From a virus (Duplodnaviria > Caudoviricetes), in the IMG/VR virus record IMGVR_UViG_3300032250_000458, positions 1 to 26,753 of that record: a stretch of 26,753 nt of DNA, one strand, 5' to 3'. Below the pieces are notes generated by a model. It was not told where the DNA came from. It searched no databases and was given only the letters and a program-made list of their open reading frames with translations. Every line of letters starts with the position of its first letter. Positions within the stretch are counted from its first letter, which is position 1. Shown here piece after piece: positions 4,301-26,394 of the stretch. A program made the position numbers and the translations under genes.

Positions 4301-4479
4301 TGCGTTTTGGTTCGTATCTGATACCGTTTCCGCGGTTCGAATCGATCCTGAAGCATCCTAAGGCCGTTTTAGGGTCATTCGTGGGATTGTTAGCCGCGTG
4401 CAACGCGGTCCCAACATTGGTCCTACCTCGCCTATCGCTCAAATCCGACCCTCCCCCCCGTTTTTAGCGCAAAAATGGC
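4301..4479. other. Probable cos/packaging-initiation region
   Basis: Non-coding gap between HNH and terS, where cos lies in HNH-terS-terL phages; G7 tract on the minus strand and repeated CGTTTT(T)AG-like words; exact cut site not determinable. Confidence 0.55.
4453..4475 (+). repeat. 23-bp dyad motif C7-G-TTTTT-AGCGC-AAAAA, copy A
   Basis: Reverse complement matches 13838..13860 at 22/23 positions. Confidence 0.85.
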
Positions 4480-6259: not shown

Positions 6260-6541
6260 TCACGCGGGATGGAAATACGCTTCGCCACCGTCATCCCGGT
6301 AGCGCATCCGGCCGCTGTACCACCACACGCCTTGCTTGTCCGGGATGTAGATCGCCTCGGTGTAGACATCGCGCCCGATGTTCGATGGAAGTTCCTCGCA
6401 GCACACGCCCATGACCACAGGCACGCGGATTTCTAAATCCGTGCCATCGACCTGCACGCGGTCACCGTCACATGGGCCCCAGCGCAGTTGCACTTCCTCC
6501 ATGCCCGGCATTATCCCGCTGCCGCATTCGTGGCTCGTCAT
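6260..6541 (-). CDS. Hypothetical protein (93 aa; start may be later)
   Basis: ATGA-coupled to the upstream gene; GPCDG motif like small conserved phage proteins. Confidence 0.6.
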   Translation of the reverse strand: MTSHECGSGIMPGMEEVQLRWGPCDGDRVQVDGTDLEIRVPVVMGVCCEELPSNIGRDVYTEAIYIPDKQGVWWYSGRMRYRDDGGEAYFHPA

Positions 6542-6882
6542 TTCATCACCTCGCGCAGCTTCGCGCGCAGGTGCATCGCGTGCGCCTTGCGGAATATCGC
6601 GGCAACCAAGCGCGCGAACTCTCGCACCTCGTCAGGGTCGGGTGGCCGCCGGTGCAGGCTGCGCGTGGCGGTTTGGATGTCATCGATGCCCAGCGCGATG
6701 GCCGCGGCCGATGGTTCGACCTGGCACACCCGCACGATCACGGCTAGCGCGGTGATGCGCTCGCGCTGGTGGCGGCGCAGGTGATCCCGGTAGGCGGCCA
6801 TGCTCGCATCGTTCCCGTACCCGAACTCAAGGGACGCAAGCGCCATCACCACCTGCCACGGTTGTGCGCTTGTGGTTCCCAT
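6538..6882 (-). CDS. Hypothetical protein, possible degenerate DnaA domain IV-like HTH (114 aa)
   Basis: AAGGGA RBS; ERITALAVIVRVCQVEPSAAAIALGIDDIQTATRSL loosely follows the DnaA C-terminal pattern; adjacent to the putative origin. Confidence 0.5.
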   Translation of the reverse strand: MGTTSAQPWQVVMALASLEFGYGNDASMAAYRDHLRRHQRERITALAVIVRVCQVEPSAAAIALGIDDIQTATRSLHRRPPDPDEVREFARLVAAIFRKAHAMHLRAKLREVMK

Positions 6883-6900
6883 TTATGCATATTCCCTTCG

Positions 6901-7045
6901 ATTCCGATAACTGATCCGATAGGGCTGGGTTGTTTTTTTCTTTTTTCTCTCTCCCTTTAGGGGAGAGAAAAAGGAAATAAAACAGCCCTGCCGCCCTAAT
7001 TTCGCCATTTGAAATTGGGCCGAAAACCTAATTAGTATCGGACTT
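6901..7045. other. Putative replication origin: AT-rich long imperfect palindrome with flanking repeats
   Basis: AGGGCTG(6921)..TCTCTCCC-TTTAG-GGGAGAGA..CAGCCCT(6989); second dyad 6993-7020; TCCGATA at 6903, 6915 and inverted at 7036; immediately downstream of the primase-helicase. Confidence 0.55.
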
Positions 7046-7067
7046 TCCCTCATCGTGTTACACGCTG

Positions 7068-11291: not shown

Positions 11292-12130
11292 CGTGCAAGC
11301 CCTTCCTCAAGTTGGCGGCGCGCCCAATTCGCAAGTCCGATGCGTTCGATGCGATCCGGGTAGCCGGGCCATGTCTCGGTTTCGTGGCACACCTTGTAAT
11401 CCGCGATCAGCCGCCGCATGTCCGCTTCGAAGTAGTCCATGTCGGAATCGTCCATGGCGTAAACAGCCACGCCGTGAGGCGCGGTGTTCTCCACGCACAG
11501 GAACGCGAAGCCACTCACATTGAGCCCGGCGATGCGCGCCACGCGTCGATAAAACGCGGCCTGCAACCCGTAGCCAAGGTTCCAAAGCGCAGACTTGAAC
11601 CCGGGGTATGACGCGTCGCGGCAGGTCTTCAGGTCGATCACCCAGCCGGTGGCGGGGTCATACCCATCCAGCCGCGCCTTCAACTGCGTTCCTGTGTGCG
11701 GGTCTTCCGCAAACACGGAAAGTTCACGCTGGGTAGCCATCTCCAGCATGGCGCGGCAAGAGTTCGACGCGTGAACCGCGGCAACCATGCCCGCCACCGC
11801 CTCGCCCTGGCTGGCATCAAGGATCAACTTGTGCCCGTTCAGGACTTCGAACGCGCGGAACTCAGCCTTGCCTGCGGTGGTGCGCTTGTCGCACTTCGGC
11901 GCTACCGCCACTTCCGCCGTGTACATGTCCGGGGTGAGAATCGCCGTATGCACAGCGGTGCCCATGTTCATCGCGTCATTGCTCTCGCCATTCTCCATTT
12001 GGTAGCGAGCGTGCAGCGGTGACTTGGCAAGCATCGCCTTCATAAAGGTGGAGGACAGGGCGGGCACCGCGTGGTAGTCCGCGGCGGGGATGTGTTCACG
12101 AACGCCAAGGGCGAAGGTGTTAGCGGCCAC
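11288..12130 (-). CDS. RecE/Exo VIII-like PD-(D/E)XK exonuclease (DUF3799-like; 280 aa)
   Basis: DYHA..LSST..GTAVHTAIL..ELSVF..KARLD..IDLKT..YGLQAAFY; GTG start behind GAGGAGG; paired with recT. Confidence 0.88.
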   Translation of the reverse strand: MAANTFALGVREHIPAADYHAVPALSSTFMKAMLAKSPLHARYQMENGESNDAMNMGTAVHTAILTPDMYTAEVAVAPKCDKRTTAGKAEFRAFEVLNGHKLILDASQGEAVAGMVAAVHASNSCRAMLEMATQRELSVFAEDPHTGTQLKARLDGYDPATGWVIDLKTCRDASYPGFKSALWNLGYGLQAAFYRRVARIAGLNVSGFAFLCVENTAPHGVAVYAMDDSDMDYFEADMRRLIADYKVCHETETWPGYPDRIERIGLANWARRQLEEGLAR

Positions 12131-12269
12131 AGCGCACCTCCTCGGCAATTGCCAACAAATCACGCTCGCGCTTGATCGCCTCGCGCAGCTTCGCAAGCGC
12201 CTTCTGCTCGTGGTACCAAACGGTCTTGGGATCGCAGCCCAGCACCTTTGCAACTTCAACAAGAGTCAT
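12120..12269 (-). CDS. Stand-alone sigma70 region 4-like HTH mini-protein (49 aa)
   Basis: Below the ORF-track cut-off; hand translation MTLVEVAKVLGCDPKTVWYHEQKALAKLREAIKRERDLLAIAEEVRCGR; GGAGG RBS and ATGA coupling; fits the TLxEIAxxLG...ExxALxKLR pattern. Confidence 0.75.
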   Translation of the reverse strand: MTLVEVAKVLGCDPKTVWYHEQKALAKLREAIKRERDLLAIAEEVRCGR

Positions 12270-12625
12270 CGGCCACCTCCCGCCAGCGAACGAATGACGC
12301 GAACTCCGCGCGTGAGAAGCGGTACCTCGGGTGCGGGCTCAACCTCATCTTCGGAAATGTCTCGGCGGTAATCACCCTGGCCCAGCGACAAGAGCGGCGC
12401 GCAATCCTTCCGGCGCTCCTGCTGCATCACGCTGTGCGCGGCCGCAAGGATGGCCACCGGGTGGATAGGGGTGGGGAACCCGTCAAGTTCCTTCGTGAGC
12501 GCGTACAGCTTGTGCATGGACACAAGGCGCACCCACTCCGCATCCTGCGAACATCCCCCAGCGTTCAGGCTTTGAATTGCTAGCCCGATGTCCTCAACGA
12601 TCTTCCCGTAGCGATTGCGATCCAT
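12266..12625 (-). CDS. Hypothetical protein, first early gene after attP (119 aa)
   Basis: AGGAG RBS; overlaps the int 3' end; coupled to the HTH mini-gene. Confidence 0.7.
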   Translation of the reverse strand: MDRNRYGKIVEDIGLAIQSLNAGGCSQDAEWVRLVSMHKLYALTKELDGFPTPIHPVAILAAAHSVMQQERRKDCAPLLSLGQGDYRRDISEDEVEPAPEVPLLTRGVRVIRSLAGGGR

Positions 12626-13889
12626 GCGATGGCTCCTGCTGCGTTAGCAGCATTTGCGCCTCGTGCATCAGCACCAATGCTTCCTTTAGGAAAGCGTGGT
12701 CTGTTAGCAATGAGGCTGCGGCTAAAAGCCGCCCCGCACGGGTGGGTAGGCTCACAGTTTCGAATCCTGTAGCGCCTACTGCAACTGTGTTGATGGAGCG
12801 ACCGCGAACACATCGAAGACTAGCGCGCGTGGTGGATTCAACGGCCGTAGGCGCGATGCGCGCGCTAGTCGCCGAAGTGTTCGCAGGGATAGTTGCACCG
12901 TTGGCCATTGCTGAATCCGTGCGTAACCTATCGACCGCACTAGTTTTCATGGGACAGTTTTTAGATATTTTTCCGCCGCGGCTCTCGGCAGCCTCGCGTA
13001 GCCGGGGTTCCCGGTGCCGGATGTAACGGTGCGTCTGCGATATATCCCGGTGGCGCACAAGGCGTTGAATCAGTTCCGGCGGGGTGCCGTTCTCAAAGGA
13101 TTCGGTGATGTAGCCGCAGCGGAACGAATGGAATCCGTACCTGCCGGACATCCCCGCGCCCTTCAAATCCGTGGCCAGCCCCTTGTAGGACACGGTGCGG
13201 GCAAACACCTTGGGCCCGGTCTTGGCCTTTCGCATCTCGCGCAGCAGTTCAACCGCCGCATGGGAAAGCGGAATGTGATCCCGGCGGCGCGATTTGTCCA
13301 GGCTCACCACCATTGTCCCGGCCTCTAGGTCAATGTCGCTCCACAACTGCGCGTGGGCTTCGCCTCGCCGGATGCCCGTAAGGGACAGCAGCCGGTACAG
13401 GTTGGCGCGGTTCTTGGCGCTGGCTCGGATGGCGGGGGATGCGCCCTCGGTGATCTGCTCGGTGGCGTGGTCGATTAGCCGCTGCACCTCGGCATCGCTG
13501 AACGCGTCGCGGCCTTGCCCAGCCCGGCCGCGCGGCCCTGGCACATGCGCCCACGGGTTGGATTCAATTAGCCCTTGGATCAGCATCCAGCCCGCAAAGC
13601 GGCGGCAGGCGCTCATGCGGTTCCGGATAGTTTGCGGTGCAAGGGTGCCGCCGCGGGTCATATCCCGCAGCCATTCAATGCAGGAAGCGGGGGAAATCTC
13701 GGCCGCGTGCGCCTTCACATGCTCGAGCCAATCCCGCACCCAGCGCGCAGCCTGGCGCACATGGTATTCGGCTTGCCCGTCAAGCTCGCGGGTAGCCACG
13801 ATCCACGCATCTACCTGCGCAAGTAGGTCTACCCCTGTTTTTACGCTAAAAACGGGGGGGGGGGGTATGCACGAGGTGTCTCCACACAT
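12594..13889 (-). CDS. int: Tyrosine integrase with no arm-binding domain and a ~130-aa C-terminal extension (431 aa)
   Basis: APQTIRNRMSACRRF..SNPW core-binding domain; catalytic TGIRRGE, DKSRR, HSFRCG, VRHRDISQTHRY. Confidence 0.93.
   Translation of the reverse strand: MCGDTSCIPPPPVFSVKTGVDLLAQVDAWIVATRELDGQAEYHVRQAARWVRDWLEHVKAHAAEISPASCIEWLRDMTRGGTLAPQTIRNRMSACRRFAGWMLIQGLIESNPWAHVPGPRGRAGQGRDAFSDAEVQRLIDHATEQITEGASPAIRASAKNRANLYRLLSLTGIRRGEAHAQLWSDIDLEAGTMVVSLDKSRRRDHIPLSHAAVELLREMRKAKTGPKVFARTVSYKGLATDLKGAGMSGRYGFHSFRCGYITESFENGTPPELIQRLVRHRDISQTHRYIRHREPRLREAAESRGGKISKNCPMKTSAVDRLRTDSAMANGATIPANTSATSARIAPTAVESTTRASLRCVRGRSINTVAVGATGFETVSLPTRAGRLLAAASLLTDHAFLKEALVLMHEAQMLLTQQEPSHGSQSLREDR
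12754..12779 (+). mobile_element. attP core: 3' end of a host tRNA (T-loop, T-stem, acceptor strand), probably tRNA-Val
   Basis: ACAGT-TTCGAAT-CCTGT-AGCGCCT-A-C; tRNA-like from the T-loop onward, with one mismatch 5' of the loop and no D or anticodon arm. Confidence 0.8.
13838..13865 (+). repeat. 23-bp dyad motif copy B plus G12 homopolymer in the 5' end of int
   Basis: TTTTT-ACGCT-AAAAA-C-G12 (G at 13854-13865); inverted copy of 4453..4475. Confidence 0.85.
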
Positions 13890-13901
13890 GGCTCCGAGGC
13901 C

Positions 13902-13910
13902 ACGGTATCA
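13902..13910 (-). promoter_or_regulatory. Possible extended -10 promoter for int
   Basis: TG-A-TACCGT about 12 nt upstream of the int ATG; no properly spaced -35. Confidence 0.3.
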
Positions 13911-14062
13911 CCCAAATCAATTTCAAAAGTCACCCGGACTTTCATTCCGTCGAAACCTAGTGCGTTCCGTAACTAGTTTGGGTTATTTGGCAAGTTATGC
14001 ACACCATCATGCATTTGGGGAGTTCAGAAAGGAACCGCACACACATCCCCAGTTCTAGTTAG

Positions 14063-14091
14063 TTGTATCGACCCGTCAAAATCACTATCGT
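14063..14091 (+). promoter_or_regulatory. Sigma70-type promoter for the single plus-strand gene
   Basis: TTGTAT-N17-TATCGT followed by GGAGG (14104-14108) and ATG 14116. Confidence 0.55.
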
Positions 14092-14115
14092 GCGCGCTCA
14101 TCCGGAGGATTCAGC

Positions 14116-14382
14116 ATGGCAACAGTTCAGGAAGATGGCGGGTTGAGCGAAGCGGAGCGGCGCAAGATTTGGGCGGAGGAACGCGAACGCACGCGCGCCA
14201 ACCTTGCCGCCCGCGGCGAAGCAATCGAAGCAATGGAACAGGCTGAACGCTCCGCGTCTTACGCGCGCACGCGAACGATGCTGAAGTGGACTGCGATTGC
14301 CATCGGCTTGCTGGTAACTGGGATGTTGCTGTGGAATGCATACGAACGCTTCGTGCTTCCCCAGCCACGGCACTTCCGCTAG
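14116..14382 (+). CDS. Single-pass membrane protein (88 aa), possible superinfection-exclusion/lysogen-expressed gene
   Basis: Own promoter and GGAGG RBS; charged helical N-terminus, TM segment WTAIAIGLLVTGMLLW; only plus-strand gene, convergent with the late operon. Confidence 0.75.
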   Translation: MATVQEDGGLSEAERRKIWAEERERTRANLAARGEAIEAMEQAERSASYARTRTMLKWTAIAIGLLVTGMLLWNAYERFVLPQPRHFR

Positions 14383-14897
14383 CCCAGCAGCCGCTTGGCT
14401 GTATCCACCACGCTGCTGGCCACGCCGGTGATGGCCTCGGCCACGGTGCCCAGGCTTGCGCCCGTGCCCTCTACGGGCTGCCACTTGCCCAGCGGGCAGG
14501 TTGCCCCGGCTAGGGTCAGTTTCACCGATAGCGCCGCGCGGCGGTTGGAACCGCACCCGCACTTGGTACACCAGCCGATGCCGCCGGGATCGGTAGCGCC
14601 CTCCACCACCTCGGCGCGGCCTTCGCACGCTCGGCAAATAGCCGCGCGCTCACCCTGCACTTGGACGCTGGCGGGGCCTTGGGTGGCGTGCCTGCGCTCC
14701 GCAGCTAGATATGCCGCGGCGCGCGATGCGAAACCGTAGTTGATCGTTTCACCGATGCCCATCGGCCGCTCGCCCTTGACCACGCGGTGCGGGCATTGGC
14801 CGCACACACCGATGCTGGGGCGGCCTCCGTAGTGGCCCGCGGCGCAGCATCCGCCGCCCAACACCTTGCATTCGCTCCAATGGTCGCAGTCGATCAC
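14379..14897 (-). CDS. Cys-rich protein with a DUF6171-like CxxC..CxxCGC..K..CPxxKW module (172 aa, 12 Cys)
   Basis: ERAAICRACE..WCTKCGC..KLTLAGATCPLGKW plus an N-terminal Cys/His cluster; GTGA-coupled. Confidence 0.75.
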   Translation of the reverse strand: MIDCDHWSECKVLGGGCCAAGHYGGRPSIGVCGQCPHRVVKGERPMGIGETINYGFASRAAAYLAAERRHATQGPASVQVQGERAAICRACEGRAEVVEGATDPGGIGWCTKCGCGSNRRAALSVKLTLAGATCPLGKWQPVEGTGASLGTVAEAITGVASSVVDTAKRLLG

Positions 14898-15586
14898 GAT
14901 ACGGAAAACTCCGTCACATACGGGCTAGACCCGCCAGCCTCTAGCGTCCATGATGCTTCGCGCGGATCACATGCTCCAGCTATGGTTGGTTTTTCCCATT
15001 GAGCGTAAAATCCGCCTGGAACTGCACATGTGGCATAGGTGCGATAGTCACACGGGTCGCAAACGATTCCTTCCTGTGTGCAATCTTCGGAAGAACAAAC
15101 GGTGCTTGAGGCAATCTCGATATTGCCCCTGAAACTGCATCTTGAGGATGTTTCAACGGTTGGATGTAGCACAACCGTCGCGTACAAAGAAAAGTCGTAG
15201 TCAACTGTGCAACACGGGCCAGCACCGTAGTTTTGGCACACAGAGTAGGAACTTGCTCCGGAGTAGAACTCTACTGCGTTTGCTATGAAAACTGCGCCAT
15301 CTGTTCGGTATGCAGTTTCGCAAGGGCAAACATTTGCTACCACAGACCCGGATATGGGGTAAAGACCTGTGCTTGTTTCTACACCTTGTGAACAGTTCCC
15401 GGGATTGAGTGGATCAGGGCCGCATGTGTAGGTGCTGCCTCCCGGCCCTGGTGTGATCAATCCACCAAAACACGATGGTGCGCCGCTGATTGTGAACGAA
15501 ACCAGCACGGCTGTTGGCGCGGTAATTGCAACGCAATGAGCGCATGTACACCCACCGCAGCAACAACCCGCCATCATCATCGACAC
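14894..15586 (-). CDS. Cys-rich protein (230 aa, 21 Cys, N-terminal GCCCGGCTCAHC), possible receptor-binding/tail-tip protein
   Basis: Ser/Thr/Gly/Cys-rich beta-type composition; visibly lower GC than flanks; function inferred only. Confidence 0.65.
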   Translation of the reverse strand: MSMMMAGCCCGGCTCAHCVAITAPTAVLVSFTISGAPSCFGGLITPGPGGSTYTCGPDPLNPGNCSQGVETSTGLYPISGSVVANVCPCETAYRTDGAVFIANAVEFYSGASSYSVCQNYGAGPCCTVDYDFSLYATVVLHPTVETSSRCSFRGNIEIASSTVCSSEDCTQEGIVCDPCDYRTYATCAVPGGFYAQWEKPTIAGACDPREASWTLEAGGSSPYVTEFSVS

Positions 15587-17958: not shown

Positions 17959-19149
17959 TTACACGGCTCCCGTTGCTGCTGCGAGTTTCGCCAGGTGCGT
18001 TGCGCTGGCCTGCGTGGCCTTGGCGGTGGCCTCTGCGGGCTTCGCCAGTTTATCTAGCCCGCTGGTGGTGCCAGCCATTTTCACGCTGCCCACGGCGCTT
18101 TGGATGCTTTCGATGTTGGAAACCGCGGTGGTCTTGGATGCACTAGCTTCGGCTGCCTTCAGTTTCTCATTCAGCGCGCGCGCGTTCTCTTGCTCCTGCG
18201 CGTCAAGGCCAAGACGATCCATCTTCTTTTGGAACAACTCATCCTCTGTCATCGTGCGCTCGTCTAGCGCATCCTGCAAATCATCCATGAAGTTCATCAC
18301 GGATTCCTCGCGGCGCTCCTCGGCGGCGGCGCGCATTTCTGCGCGCTTCTCCGCATCAGCCTGGGCACGCTCTTGAGCCTTCGCCGCTTCTGCTGCAATG
18401 CGTGCGCGTTCCTTCTCCGATTCTGCGGCCTGATCGGCAAGCATCTTCTCGCGTTCCTGCCGCTGTATTGCCTGATCCTGCGCCGCGCTTGTGGCCTCAA
18501 ATGCCGCGCGCAGCTTGTCGCGGGCTGCGACGATCTCCGGACCCTTTGCGCCTTCCTTCGTCATCTGATCGTTCAATTGCTTTTCAAGTTCCGCCAGGCG
18601 CTGCGCTCGCTCAACGCGGGTGCGCTGTTCGTCGTTCACCGCTTCGGCTAGTTCGCGCTGCCTCTCCAAATCGGCAGCCATCTTGGAACCCACGGCAAGC
18701 ATCCGCTCATTTCGCGCGGCTTCCTCTCGGCTTGCTTGCTGCCGTGCTTCCTGATTCCCGCTTGCGTCGCTGGTCAACCCGATGGCATCGGTGGCCGAAC
18801 CCAAACCCTGCCCAATCCACTTGCCTAGGGTGCCAGCAACCGGGATGCTTTCAAGTGTCTTGGCGAATCCATCGCCGATGGCGTAGGCAATGTTCGCACC
18901 GGCATTGTTGAAGATTGGATTCTTGAGTGTTTCATCAATGGACTTCAGCAGCGTGTCAGCGAGTTGGATTCCAAGAAACCCGCTGATTGCTTTCCCCATT
19001 GAGTTACTCCAAGACTTCATGCCCTTGGAAATGGCCTTCTCAATACCGCTCACCTTGTCCGTGGTAGCGGATTCCACTTTCTTCCAACCAGCGATGTACT
19101 GATCGGATTCAAGCGTCATTCGCGCCTTGAATGCTGCAACATTACCCAT
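17959..19149 (-). CDS. Tape measure protein, unusually short (396 aa)
   Basis: Follows the chaperone pair; MGNVAAFKARMTLESDQY-type N-terminus; Ala/Glu/Lys helical composition. Confidence 0.8.
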   Translation of the reverse strand: MGNVAAFKARMTLESDQYIAGWKKVESATTDKVSGIEKAISKGMKSWSNSMGKAISGFLGIQLADTLLKSIDETLKNPIFNNAGANIAYAIGDGFAKTLESIPVAGTLGKWIGQGLGSATDAIGLTSDASGNQEARQQASREEAARNERMLAVGSKMAADLERQRELAEAVNDEQRTRVERAQRLAELEKQLNDQMTKEGAKGPEIVAARDKLRAAFEATSAAQDQAIQRQEREKMLADQAAESEKERARIAAEAAKAQERAQADAEKRAEMRAAAEERREESVMNFMDDLQDALDERTMTEDELFQKKMDRLGLDAQEQENARALNEKLKAAEASASKTTAVSNIESIQSAVGSVKMAGTTSGLDKLAKPAEATAKATQASATHLAKLAAATGAV

Positions 19150-23986: not shown

Positions 23987-25276
23987 TCAGGTGCTGGCGT
24001 TGAAAGCCTTGAACGCCAGGGCGGGGAGCGAGAGCTGGCAATCCATACGCATGTTTGCGATGTAGCCCGTCTCATTCGTGTCCGCGTAACGCTCGCGCAG
24101 CACCTTCAATTCATAGTTGCCCGTGGTGCCGAAGTAGCAGTAGTCCCACGCGCCGATGATGCCGATCTTGGTAGCGGTGGTGCCGCTCGTCGGAAGCGAC
24201 GAAATGGCCGCGCTGGTGTACACCGGGATGCCCATGATGCGATCCGGCTCCGGAGCCTGGCCGCTGCCGCCCTTGGTGTAGCCGTTCTCCCAGAAGTAGT
24301 TGGTGACATTGGTGGAACCAGTAACGCCGCCCAGCTTGCGGAGGTATCCCAAGGTGGAATCGTTCACGATGATCGCGCAGCTAGGGTGCTGGCGGTACTG
24401 GCGGGGCAGGCTGTAAATCCAGTCGATCACCTTCTCCGCCGTGAACGCCGTGTAAGAGCCGGTATTGGTGCTGGTGAGGGAAGCATCATTCAGCAGCGAA
24501 ACCGGCGCGCCGGAAACATTGGAAGCGGCCAGCAGCGCAGTCTCTTCCGTCTGACTGAAAACACGCGCCATCTGCTCGGTGACGATGGAAGAAATCGACA
24601 TGTTGCCGCCGCGGGCATCGGCATCGGCCACCAGTTCGTTCGACACGCGCAGAAGGGCCGAAAGGCGCTTCGGGGTGAGCGTGATCTTGGAGAAGGTGGG
24701 CGCAGCCTCGGTGGGGGCGGTGGACTCACCAACCCAGTACGCGGCACCCGTGGCGTTTTCGAAAGCCACTTCGCGCGCGAACGAACCCAGCGAGAGCTTG
24801 CGCGCCAGGTTGCGAACGCTCGTCATCGTCTGCAACTTGGCCACGAGCTGGTTGTCGAACTCGGTGGGCGGGATCACGGTGCCACCGCTGGCCTCGGTCA
24901 GCGCGCGAAGCTCCGCGGGTGCGGTGTGCTCGCCGTTGCGGAGGTAGTTGTGGAACGCGTCGCGGTACTCATCGGTCTCGCGGCGCTCGCCAACCTTCGC
25001 GGCGCGCTCGGCGCGCTGGGCGCTGCGAACCTCGGGTGCGGCGGGGATGTCGCTGAACACGGCCTGCTGGCCATTGTCCATCGCCATCACTTCCTCGTTG
25101 CGCTCACGCTGCTTACGCAGGTTGGCGTACTGGGTCTTGAGGGCGGTGTACTTCGCCTCCATCTCGGGGGCCATTTCGCCGCCGTTGGTGTTTGCACCAT
25201 CGACCATCGACATCATTTCCTGATAGAGCGCACCCATCTTCTCAATGAGGGCCTTGTATGAACTGGGGACTGGCAT
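23987..25276 (-). CDS. HK97-fold major capsid protein with N-terminal delta (scaffold) domain (429 aa)
   Basis: AGGAAGGAAG RBS before MPVPSS; ~100-aa coiled-coil leader; GGTVIPP, YWVGE, FSKITLTPKRL..RVSNELVAD, IMGIPVY, RMDC. Confidence 0.93.
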   Translation of the reverse strand: MPVPSSYKALIEKMGALYQEMMSMVDGANTNGGEMAPEMEAKYTALKTQYANLRKQRERNEEVMAMDNGQQAVFSDIPAAPEVRSAQRAERAAKVGERRETDEYRDAFHNYLRNGEHTAPAELRALTEASGGTVIPPTEFDNQLVAKLQTMTSVRNLARKLSLGSFAREVAFENATGAAYWVGESTAPTEAAPTFSKITLTPKRLSALLRVSNELVADADARGGNMSISSIVTEQMARVFSQTEETALLAASNVSGAPVSLLNDASLTSTNTGSYTAFTAEKVIDWIYSLPRQYRQHPSCAIIVNDSTLGYLRKLGGVTGSTNVTNYFWENGYTKGGSGQAPEPDRIMGIPVYTSAAISSLPTSGTTATKIGIIGAWDYCYFGTTGNYELKVLRERYADTNETGYIANMRMDCQLSLPALAFKAFNAST

Positions 25277-25377
25277 CGTTTCTTCCTTCCTAGATTCCCG
25301 CCGCGTGTCGCTCGGGCCAACGCGGCCCGCAGGGACATTCGCGGCGGTGTGCGAATGCCCAAAGATTGAAACGCGCA

Positions 25378-26394
25378 CTAGGCGCGGTTGACATTCAGAA
25401 CAGCAAACTTGTTGGTGATCGATCCATCGCAACGGATCGAAGCCACGAAAATGGTTTCATTCGTATCGGCTGCCGTTTCGCTGTACCGCGCGACGCTGAA
25501 CGCGCCGAACGAATGGGCCAGCAGGTACTGGGCAGGGTTGAAGAAATGCACCAGCGTGTCACCGGCGGCCGGGGTGGTGGCGCTCAAGCGGTGGTAGACG
25601 GTTGGCAAGCCCTCAACCGTGGTGCCGTTGACCATTGTTCCGCGGAAGCTGGGGAACAGCACCGGGAAGAAACTCGGATCGAAAGATGCCACAAGGCGGC
25701 TGTTGATCACGGCCACGCTGTTGATCCACGATTCATACGGAAGCGGGGACAGGGCGCTATTCGTCGAACCCCACACCGCCGAAATCACATCCTTCATGGT
25801 GTTGGTGGTGGCCACGCCGGTTGATGCTGTGCGGCTGTAACCCTTGGCGCTGTTGAAGCTGCCTTGGCACTCGCTGGTGCCGTTGCCGATCAGAATTTGG
25901 CGGCCCACCTCAAAGATCAGCCCATCGACCAGCGCGCGGCGCAGGAACTCTTCCACATCCTGCGCGCCCTTCGAATCGTTCAGCAGTTCGTTGGACACCT
26001 TCACCCACGCGGTTACCTTCTTCTGCGCGAAGGTGTAGTAGGTACCGCTGGTGCCAGCGGTGGTGCCCTGCACGGGCTTGGCAAAGGTGGGGGAAGACTG
26101 GGTACCCAATGCGGACTCGGCCACATTGGTGTTCACCGTCAAATCCTCTGCGTAGATTGGCAGATTGAAAGCGGTGGGGGTTTCGATCTTCTGAACGCGC
26201 GACAGGATTGCGTCTTCTGCGATCTCCGTATCGATGTACTTCGACCAGGCGGTCGGGGCCAGCGCGGTGCCGCCGCTGCTGATCGTCAGCGCGCGCGCCT
26301 CCACATCGGTGAGCCCGCGCGCGCCGCGGCGCAGGAAGGTGCGGTAGATGTCGCTGTACTGTTCGGAATCGCGCGTGATCTTGGCTTCGCCCAT
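25378..26394 (-). CDS. Second HK97-fold capsid protein paralogue lacking the delta domain (338 aa)
   Basis: RALTISSGGTALAP, VAES, KKVTAWVKVSNELLNDS, ILIGNGT, VEGLPTVY, ADTNET..RCDG; collinear with the 429-aa capsid. Confidence 0.88.
   Translation of the reverse strand: MGEAKITRDSEQYSDIYRTFLRRGARGLTDVEARALTISSGGTALAPTAWSKYIDTEIAEDAILSRVQKIETPTAFNLPIYAEDLTVNTNVAESALGTQSSPTFAKPVQGTTAGTSGTYYTFAQKKVTAWVKVSNELLNDSKGAQDVEEFLRRALVDGLIFEVGRQILIGNGTSECQGSFNSAKGYSRTASTGVATTNTMKDVISAVWGSTNSALSPLPYESWINSVAVINSRLVASFDPSFFPVLFPSFRGTMVNGTTVEGLPTVYHRLSATTPAAGDTLVHFFNPAQYLLAHSFGAFSVARYSETAADTNETIFVASIRCDGSITNKFAVLNVNRA

Follow-up and report, generated by a model that had tools for sequence, protein, structure and literature searches.

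How is lysogeny held in a tailed phage that carries an integrase and an attachment site when no CI-type repressor gene is found in its genome? The question is raised by the viral record IMGVR_UViG_3300032250_000458, of which the 26,753 nucleotides analyzed here (the window) make up the circular genome (26.6 kb) of an HK97-like phage. A temperate tailed phage is expected to depend on a protein repressor, and annotators label those without one lytic or defective. A preliminary description had taken the genome as complete, which the 123-nt terminal repeat and a CheckV completeness of 100% bear out, and had proposed that integration itself disconnects the whole lytic programme. Our analysis centers on int, the gene of a tyrosine integrase (12594-13945, minus strand; Pfam Phage_integrase, E 1.5e-16), whose C-terminal tail of about 130 aa spans a predicted RNA element and attP. 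We regard it as an even call that lysogeny rests on promoter separation together with an antisense RNA repressor similar to the CI RNA of P4; on this proposal, which is read from sequence, the switch would be protein-free but not repressor-free.

Relatives of the window sequence turn up in lake and freshwater metagenome runs. Through the integrase we collected 24 viral and 15 metagenome loci as close relatives (five being the same contigs) and a further 19 deeper loci, among which the gene order is kept down to about 45% Int identity. The attP core corresponds to the 3′ end of a tRNA-Val gene (12759-12781, plus strand), is kept in clades A and B and lies within int, 133 nt upstream of the first early gene. 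The int frame runs on to 12594, so that its last 32 nt are shared with the first early gene, which starts at 12625; both distances agree with the overlap and the spacing of about 130 bp given before. In 42 of 43 loci the int frame stays open for more than 60 nt beyond the core, the exception being L010 with a 16-nt deletion, and such an open tail frame is seen in 0.7% of the shuffled controls. Among the relatives the core is traversed in three reading frames and belongs to two tRNA types. It is visible in 136 of the 141 Int proteins fetched, and 135 run on into a tail, mostly with an ERLL-type helix. In the window this helical segment is part of the post-attP tail (12594-12758, minus strand), which overlaps the first early gene and would be removed by integration. 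Compensating 2-nt indels around the core distinguish clades A and B, and in clade A 11 of the 25 variable codons of the tail are synonymous-only. Judged from these comparisons, the whole family shares the position of attP within int.

A candidate attB was found on a lake-metagenome contig with a tRNA-Val(TAC) gene that matches 12748-12782, the anticodon arm preceding the match and the DNA being unlike the window on both sides. With a related host tRNA-Val the integrated int frame would stop after 11 codons (clade A) or 7 codons (clade B). Frames entering the att site and long tails are also seen in more distant integrases of the order Phycisphaerales located at tmRNA, tRNA-Leu and tRNA-Gly genes (L166, L167, L192); L166 and L167 have a TTGAC motif 3′ of the catalytic domain.

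Both candidate promoters lie on the side of attP that integration would carry to attL. A putative -10 box of int (13954-13959, minus strand), a consensus match only, precedes the conserved start by 8 nt, and the int mRNA may be short-leadered or leaderless. The second candidate -10 box (12925-12930, minus strand) would belong to an internal early promoter in the AT-rich segment of the int coding sequence. Of 47 distinct loci, 41 have a TAnnnT hexamer 5-6 nt ahead of a leader segment, here termed X; the remaining six, namely the deepest clade and a prophage in genome G400, have TTGACA at -35 spacing. The hexamer employs an AGG/AGA arginine codon (28 of the 346 arginine codons in the window), and in L152, where its codon is ATG, the box is retained. 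This codon use and the survival of the box suggest that the constraint acts on the DNA and not on the protein. Downstream of the core TAnnnT is absent from the next 135 nt in all of 43 loci, which are related, and base composition would predict about one such hexamer per locus by an arithmetic estimate. This is in line with the earlier claims that the int promoter and the AT-rich segment move to attL and that no convincing promoter lies between attP and the first early gene. A consensus promoter scan reported none of the candidate promoters and gave chance-level matches only elsewhere.

One integrated relative is at hand. The Int profile was matched by 14 of 401 genomes of the order Phycisphaerales, strongly by G400 alone (E 2.6e-94), which is of the same family as the one genome holding the tRNA-Val stretch. 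Its prophage covers 38 kb between a tRNA-Pro gene (attL) and a 23-nt repeat (attR), and its Int, 48% identical to that of the window, stops inside attL. As read by eye, the attR end keeps the remainder of the int frame, which overlaps the first early gene some 60 nt inside the prophage; the early genes are all directed inward, and a terminator-like hairpin of the host is found immediately outside attR. Thus int is cut at attL and the early genes stand bare at attR, just as the preliminary description had supposed when it let integration separate the promoters from the early operon. Another Int that ends at the core is P0096. Genome G205 was rejected as a host, as the 5′ part of its tRNA-Val matches and the exact 3′ end does not. 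A scan of a genome collection with the Int alignment gave no match, and a scan for the att pattern gave, among the matches listed, only generic tRNA genes of many phyla.

Between the internal -10 box and the core we find the second component of the putative switch, a predicted two-state RNA of about 125 nt (12795-12918, minus strand) which is suggested by covariation and folding. Its parts are leader X (12910-12918), an internal in-frame start codon (12906-12908) and a long hairpin formed by 12859-12884 with 12804-12829, whose loop contains a segment X′ (12834-12842) complementary to X. The hairpin has a stability z-score of -5.3 against 200 shuffles. An RNA ending at the loop is predicted to fold leader to loop with the start codon buried, and the full RNA is predicted to fold the hairpin instead (nine of nine loci folded). 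In 46 of 47 loci an automated search recovered an X-X′ pair at a constant distance; as exceptions, the neighboring block was chosen in L008, and L018 and L204 have only 6-7 pairs.

For the covariation analysis we aligned 23 loci (22 distinct sequences) chosen to span the clades, the deepest clade with its shorter version being left out. The leader-loop helix is 97.5% paired with compensatory changes in six of nine pairs, and in the hairpin stem 12 of 23 pairs are compensatory. Two flanking blocks are paired to 80% and 92% and contain zero and one compensatory pairs, and slid controls pair to 32-38%. In four of five measures none of 500 shuffles reached the observed value. Taken as a whole, the leader-loop pairing covers some 25 nt, is interrupted by bulges and differs in register between clades. 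X types differ among phages which according to the tree have near-identical Int, and no residue of the Int core, the first early protein, the small helix-turn-helix (HTH) protein of the early operon or a 114-aa protein segregates with the two X types of the 13 clade-B loci, which argues against X being a protein-binding site. Rfam contains no match for the element in the window or in seven related loci. When the RNA model was run against 151 genomes no credible new copy was found, two weak matches lying without a tRNA or phage gene nearby; the model also fails to pick up the deepest clade and G400. The leader of the divergent membrane-protein gene (14098-14115) resembles X as well and could pair with the RNA loop; this resemblance is not kept in clade B.

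The start of int itself had to be revised. The conserved start is at 13945 and not at 13889; it is in frame in all five tract-free contigs, and the same N-terminal strand motif opens 27 of 41 homologue clusters (by eye). Downstream of this start lies a poly-C tract (13854-13865, minus strand), C12 in the window and 10-22 nt long in relatives with both flanks, which is a candidate phase-variable switch of int. In the window assembly C12 puts the start at 13945 out of frame. A second ATG (13887-13889), which opens the reading frame starting at 13889, lies in the +2 frame and is present in all tract-bearing alleles seen; it would yield an in-frame Int at the tract length of the window, with a poorly spaced ribosome site. 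The integrase, formerly described as intact, is therefore intact in its catalytic part (the Int core is 90-98% conserved with intact catalytic motifs), but not at its conserved start. Among 14 pure-tract alleles with both flanks, six are in frame, five at +1 and three at +2. The tract is thus a coding homopolymer whose length varies across frames, as in slipped-strand switching, with 8 of 14 assemblies out of frame. The in-frame alleles themselves vary in length (10-15), and three alleles with a common left flank have C10 (in frame), C12 and C14 (both out of frame).

The tract is also part of a 27-nt inverted repeat (4449-4475 and 13838-13864, a G/C run plus TTTTT-N5-AAAAA), which occurs in clade A only and has its other copy in the gap between the HNH and terS genes. 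As a conserved operator it was ruled out, being missing from the HNH-terS gap of clade B. Several related contigs stop about 35 nt beyond the G run of this gap, which likely marks a cos end.

A further copy of X is present in the 5′ region of int in phages that lack the tract. All 11 deep tract-free loci have it at +28 to +30, with scores of 9-12.5 against 4-9 in control windows. In clade-A alleles without the tract it is located near +110 (three of three scored, five of five by motif), and none of 11 tract-bearing loci contains it. The positions differ between lineages, which suggests separate origins, and the exclusion of target and tract amounts to two or three lineages and not to 25 independent events. 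This mutual exclusion suggests two evolutionary ways to limit the integrase. In the six loci scanned no second target was found downstream of the core; some clades have a second target upstream, in int.

We also looked for a protein repressor. In a Pfam analysis of 144 open reading frames of both strands (of 310 listed with at least 35 aa; one had 27 aa) there was no HTH_3 or S24 match and no convincing ribbon-helix-helix (RHH) match; frames below 35 aa were covered by six-frame family searches alone. Such searches of five near-complete genomes found S24 in none of five and RHH_1 in none of five. HTH_3 matches were obtained in three of five and three of five near-complete genomes, and where the position could be checked it was always the small early HTH gene. 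This gene (12120-12269, minus strand) is second in the early operon and sigma4-like (Sigma70_r4, E 0.002, below the cut-off), with 12 PDB matches that include chains of sigma-factor region 4 and of regulators. It was overlooked in the preliminary description, which had recognized no CI/Cro-type HTH gene and was right in so far as no CI-type or S24 gene is present. Neither an HTH_3 nor a sigma4-HTH match was found in one 98%-complete and one 77%-complete relative, so that the gene, which integration would place on the disconnected side, seems dispensable. The first early gene (12266-12625, minus strand) encodes a family-specific protein of 119 aa for which Pfam, PHROG, PDB and the ESM Atlas gave no match; it has 19 relatives at E<=0.001, one being a spurious 829-aa match. 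For the 114-aa protein (6538-6882) there was no match in the ESM Atlas, and the idea, formed by eye, of a DnaA-C-like HTH was left unsupported.

The divergent slot where a repressor usually sits holds an accessory membrane-protein gene (14116-14382, plus strand, 88 aa), as noticed before. An 18-residue stretch of its product matches RHH_5 weakly (E 0.007). Across relatives the slot contains zero, one or two unrelated membrane genes; the window's gene is missing from L004, L006, L009, L152 and L154, and in one metagenome run there is a deletion joint at 14030-14374. Every other recognized gene of the window is on the minus strand (terminase, portal, protease, two capsid-like genes, tail genes, RecE/RecT and primase-helicase), which confirms the unidirectional arrangement described earlier. 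In short, the locus has neither an XRE-HTH repressor with an S24 domain nor a divergent repressor gene, the features of the lambdoid CI/Cro arrangement.

We propose the following mechanism. On infection the internal promoter would yield a transcript whose finished hairpin frees the leader and the start codon; ribosomes would then cross attP in frame and couple into the early genes, leading to the lytic cycle. As the hairpin RNA accumulates it could offer its loop in trans to new leaders and block the start codon, giving superinfection immunity. Integration at attP would place both candidate promoters on the attL side, from which the hairpin RNA would still be produced, and the early operon at attR would be without a promoter. 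Where int has a copy of the target, the same loop may damp int translation. The subclade of the window would have lost this target, and the poly-C tract would instead make Int, and with it integration and excision, stochastically ON or OFF, provided that the tract varies in vivo. The preliminary view of a repressor-less phage with excision as the ON switch keeps its geometry, which holds across 45-95% Int identity and in one prophage; what it overlooked is the covarying RNA. With somewhat less assurance, and tentatively, we further suggest that the window represents an autonomous phage family in which the whole switch is inside int, with no protein repressor, with RNA immunity and an RNA hold on Int, and with a phase-variable poly-C tract in one subclade. 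If true, phages of a common bacterial group of lakes would possess a minimal switch made up of one recombinase gene, a site and an RNA, and the RNA would be new to Rfam, its natural specificity variants predicting immunity groups. In the literature, as far as our search of limited coverage reached, we found no account of this phage family, of an integrating tailed phage that does without a repressor or of a phage integrase subject to phase variation.

Several points weigh against this combined switch. The shuffle test ignores relatedness, and its fifth measure was reached by 97 of 500 shuffles; the G-U versus A-C counts (9 vs 13 in the leader-loop helix, 12 vs 8 in the stem) are no more in favor of pairing as RNA than as DNA, and a genome-wide duplex scan puts the leader first in four of six loci, but not in the window or in L208. 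Both the tract and the target in int are lacking from five loci of the deepest clade. An RNA acting in trans would persist after excision, so that excision would be needed but perhaps insufficient for induction, and no bypass of the persisting RNA was found. As a late promoter, a sigma70 match at 26574-26547 is at chance level, and what is shown of a disconnected "whole lytic programme" is confined to the 5′ end of the early operon. In the G400 prophage the head genes are of a different type. A patch of lower G+C content within it (G400:C4 70100-73600, L180-L182) contains a second integrase with an adjacent HTH_3-ImmA gene, and also a 201-aa gene; we read this patch as a nested element.

The persistence of the RNA would be no obstacle if, as the preliminary description had it, integration alone silenced and excision activated; the RNA would then be a folding timer or attenuator in cis only, and immunity would be absent. 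The layout evidence is the same, both folds are available in cis, and no repressor RNA would outlast excision. Co-transcriptional folding alone, however, hardly explains why a covarying target of the loop is found 1 kb off in the 5′ region of int, and the several X types among near-identical phages resemble specificity variants; we judge this explanation unlikely, if still a serious one. An involvement of a protein repressor appears improbable to us. It would have to be the sigma4-like HTH protein, or a hidden fold in the 119- or 114-aa protein, expressed from an unseen promoter or by read-in from the host. The HTH gene does have orthologues in most relatives with a varying recognition helix, and among its weak HTH_3 matches one orthologue exceeds the cut-off (24.1 vs 23 bits). 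Yet it stands second in the operon on the disconnected side, no -10-like box follows the core, the gene was not found in the 98%-complete relative, and the X type does not track the HTH type.

There is a slim chance that X and X′ are DNA sites for an Int accessory or host factor, that the hairpin replaces the 3′ structure of the tRNA and that attP within int only tunes Int activity, as in Mx8. X and X′ are indeed inverted copies 55-150 nt from the core, the wobble counts are neutral, and in G400 this region provides a tRNA terminator with a U tail; but the pairing is long and bulged and its register differs between clades, X changes while the Int core does not, and X is placed exactly at the predicted transcription start. 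Slimmer still is the chance that the clade of the window is mostly lytic, integration being rare or vestigial and the out-of-frame tracts being assembly errors. Integrated copies are rare (one in 401 and one in 304 genomes, both times the same genome, and one in 136 Int proteins), and no attL or attR junction of the tRNA-Val clade was found in the contigs of eight runs. Long G/C runs assemble badly, so that tract lengths in assemblies can be wrong, and the unitigs of the probable source run break at the tract. These facts, which also count against the switch proposed here, are to be set against the conservation of the Int core with its catalytic motifs, the existence of a complete related prophage and the differing lengths of the in-frame tract alleles.

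A few features outside the switch were noted. Directly after the primase-helicase gene there is a near-perfect purine/pyrimidine hairpin (6918-6998), overlapping a conserved 56-aa reading frame (6883-7053), which is possibly an origin or a terminator; a mir-3613 match of Rfam at this place is below threshold and was discarded as mere hairpin resemblance. Two tandem HK97-type capsid-like genes (23987-25432 and 25378-26394) are shared with the relatives. The tape-measure-like gene (17959-19149) codes for only 396 aa, and up to about 550 aa in relatives, so the tail of the window phage is likely very short. Two cysteine-rich late genes occupy 14379-15586; in the 230-aa cysteine-rich late protein the first residues are kept and the rest is highly variable among relatives (up to 961 aa, in L020), making it a candidate host-recognition protein.

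How does the proposed switch compare with known systems? In Tn916 and ICEclc excision joins a promoter to the genes at the other end of the element, with protein regulators being retained. These are conjugative elements and not tailed phages. In phage Mx8 attP is inside int and integration provides a new C-terminus of Int; immunity there has its own gene, imm, and uoi is a gene of the HTH type (PMC6070905). The window likewise has attP within int, so placed that integration would alter the C-terminus of Int; the part of the Mx8 account at hand describes neither promoter separation nor a nested RNA. In BPs attP is in the protein repressor gene, and integration cuts off a degradation tag and thereby sets lysogeny (PMC4557955). 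Common to both is that integration itself would act as the switch by cutting a gene at attP; in the window, however, this gene is int, and no such tag or repressor is seen.

In P1 and P7 the antisense RNA C4 acts on an antirepressor, which in turn stands above the protein repressor C1. Its antisense sequence is displayed in loops and blocks a translation start, and its variants define immunity groups (PMC12197685). The X types might define immunity groups in the same manner; the window phage differs in being without a detected protein repressor and in its fold, which is one long hairpin. Closest in logic is P4, whose CI RNA is processed out of the early leader and shuts off the replication genes by pairing with a complementary sequence farther upstream in that transcript; no protein repressor is used at this step, and targets lie on both sides, seqA and seqC (PMC4825925). 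The loop of the window RNA is likewise complementary to an upstream target in its own leader. P4 is a satellite, whereas the window phage is autonomous, no downstream target was found in the six loci scanned, and its RNA is nested in int beside attP and has no Rfam similarity to the RNAs of P4 or C4. Each part of the proposed switch has a precedent; what appears novel, in that we have not found it elsewhere, is the RNA itself and the combination of these parts in an autonomous tailed phage.

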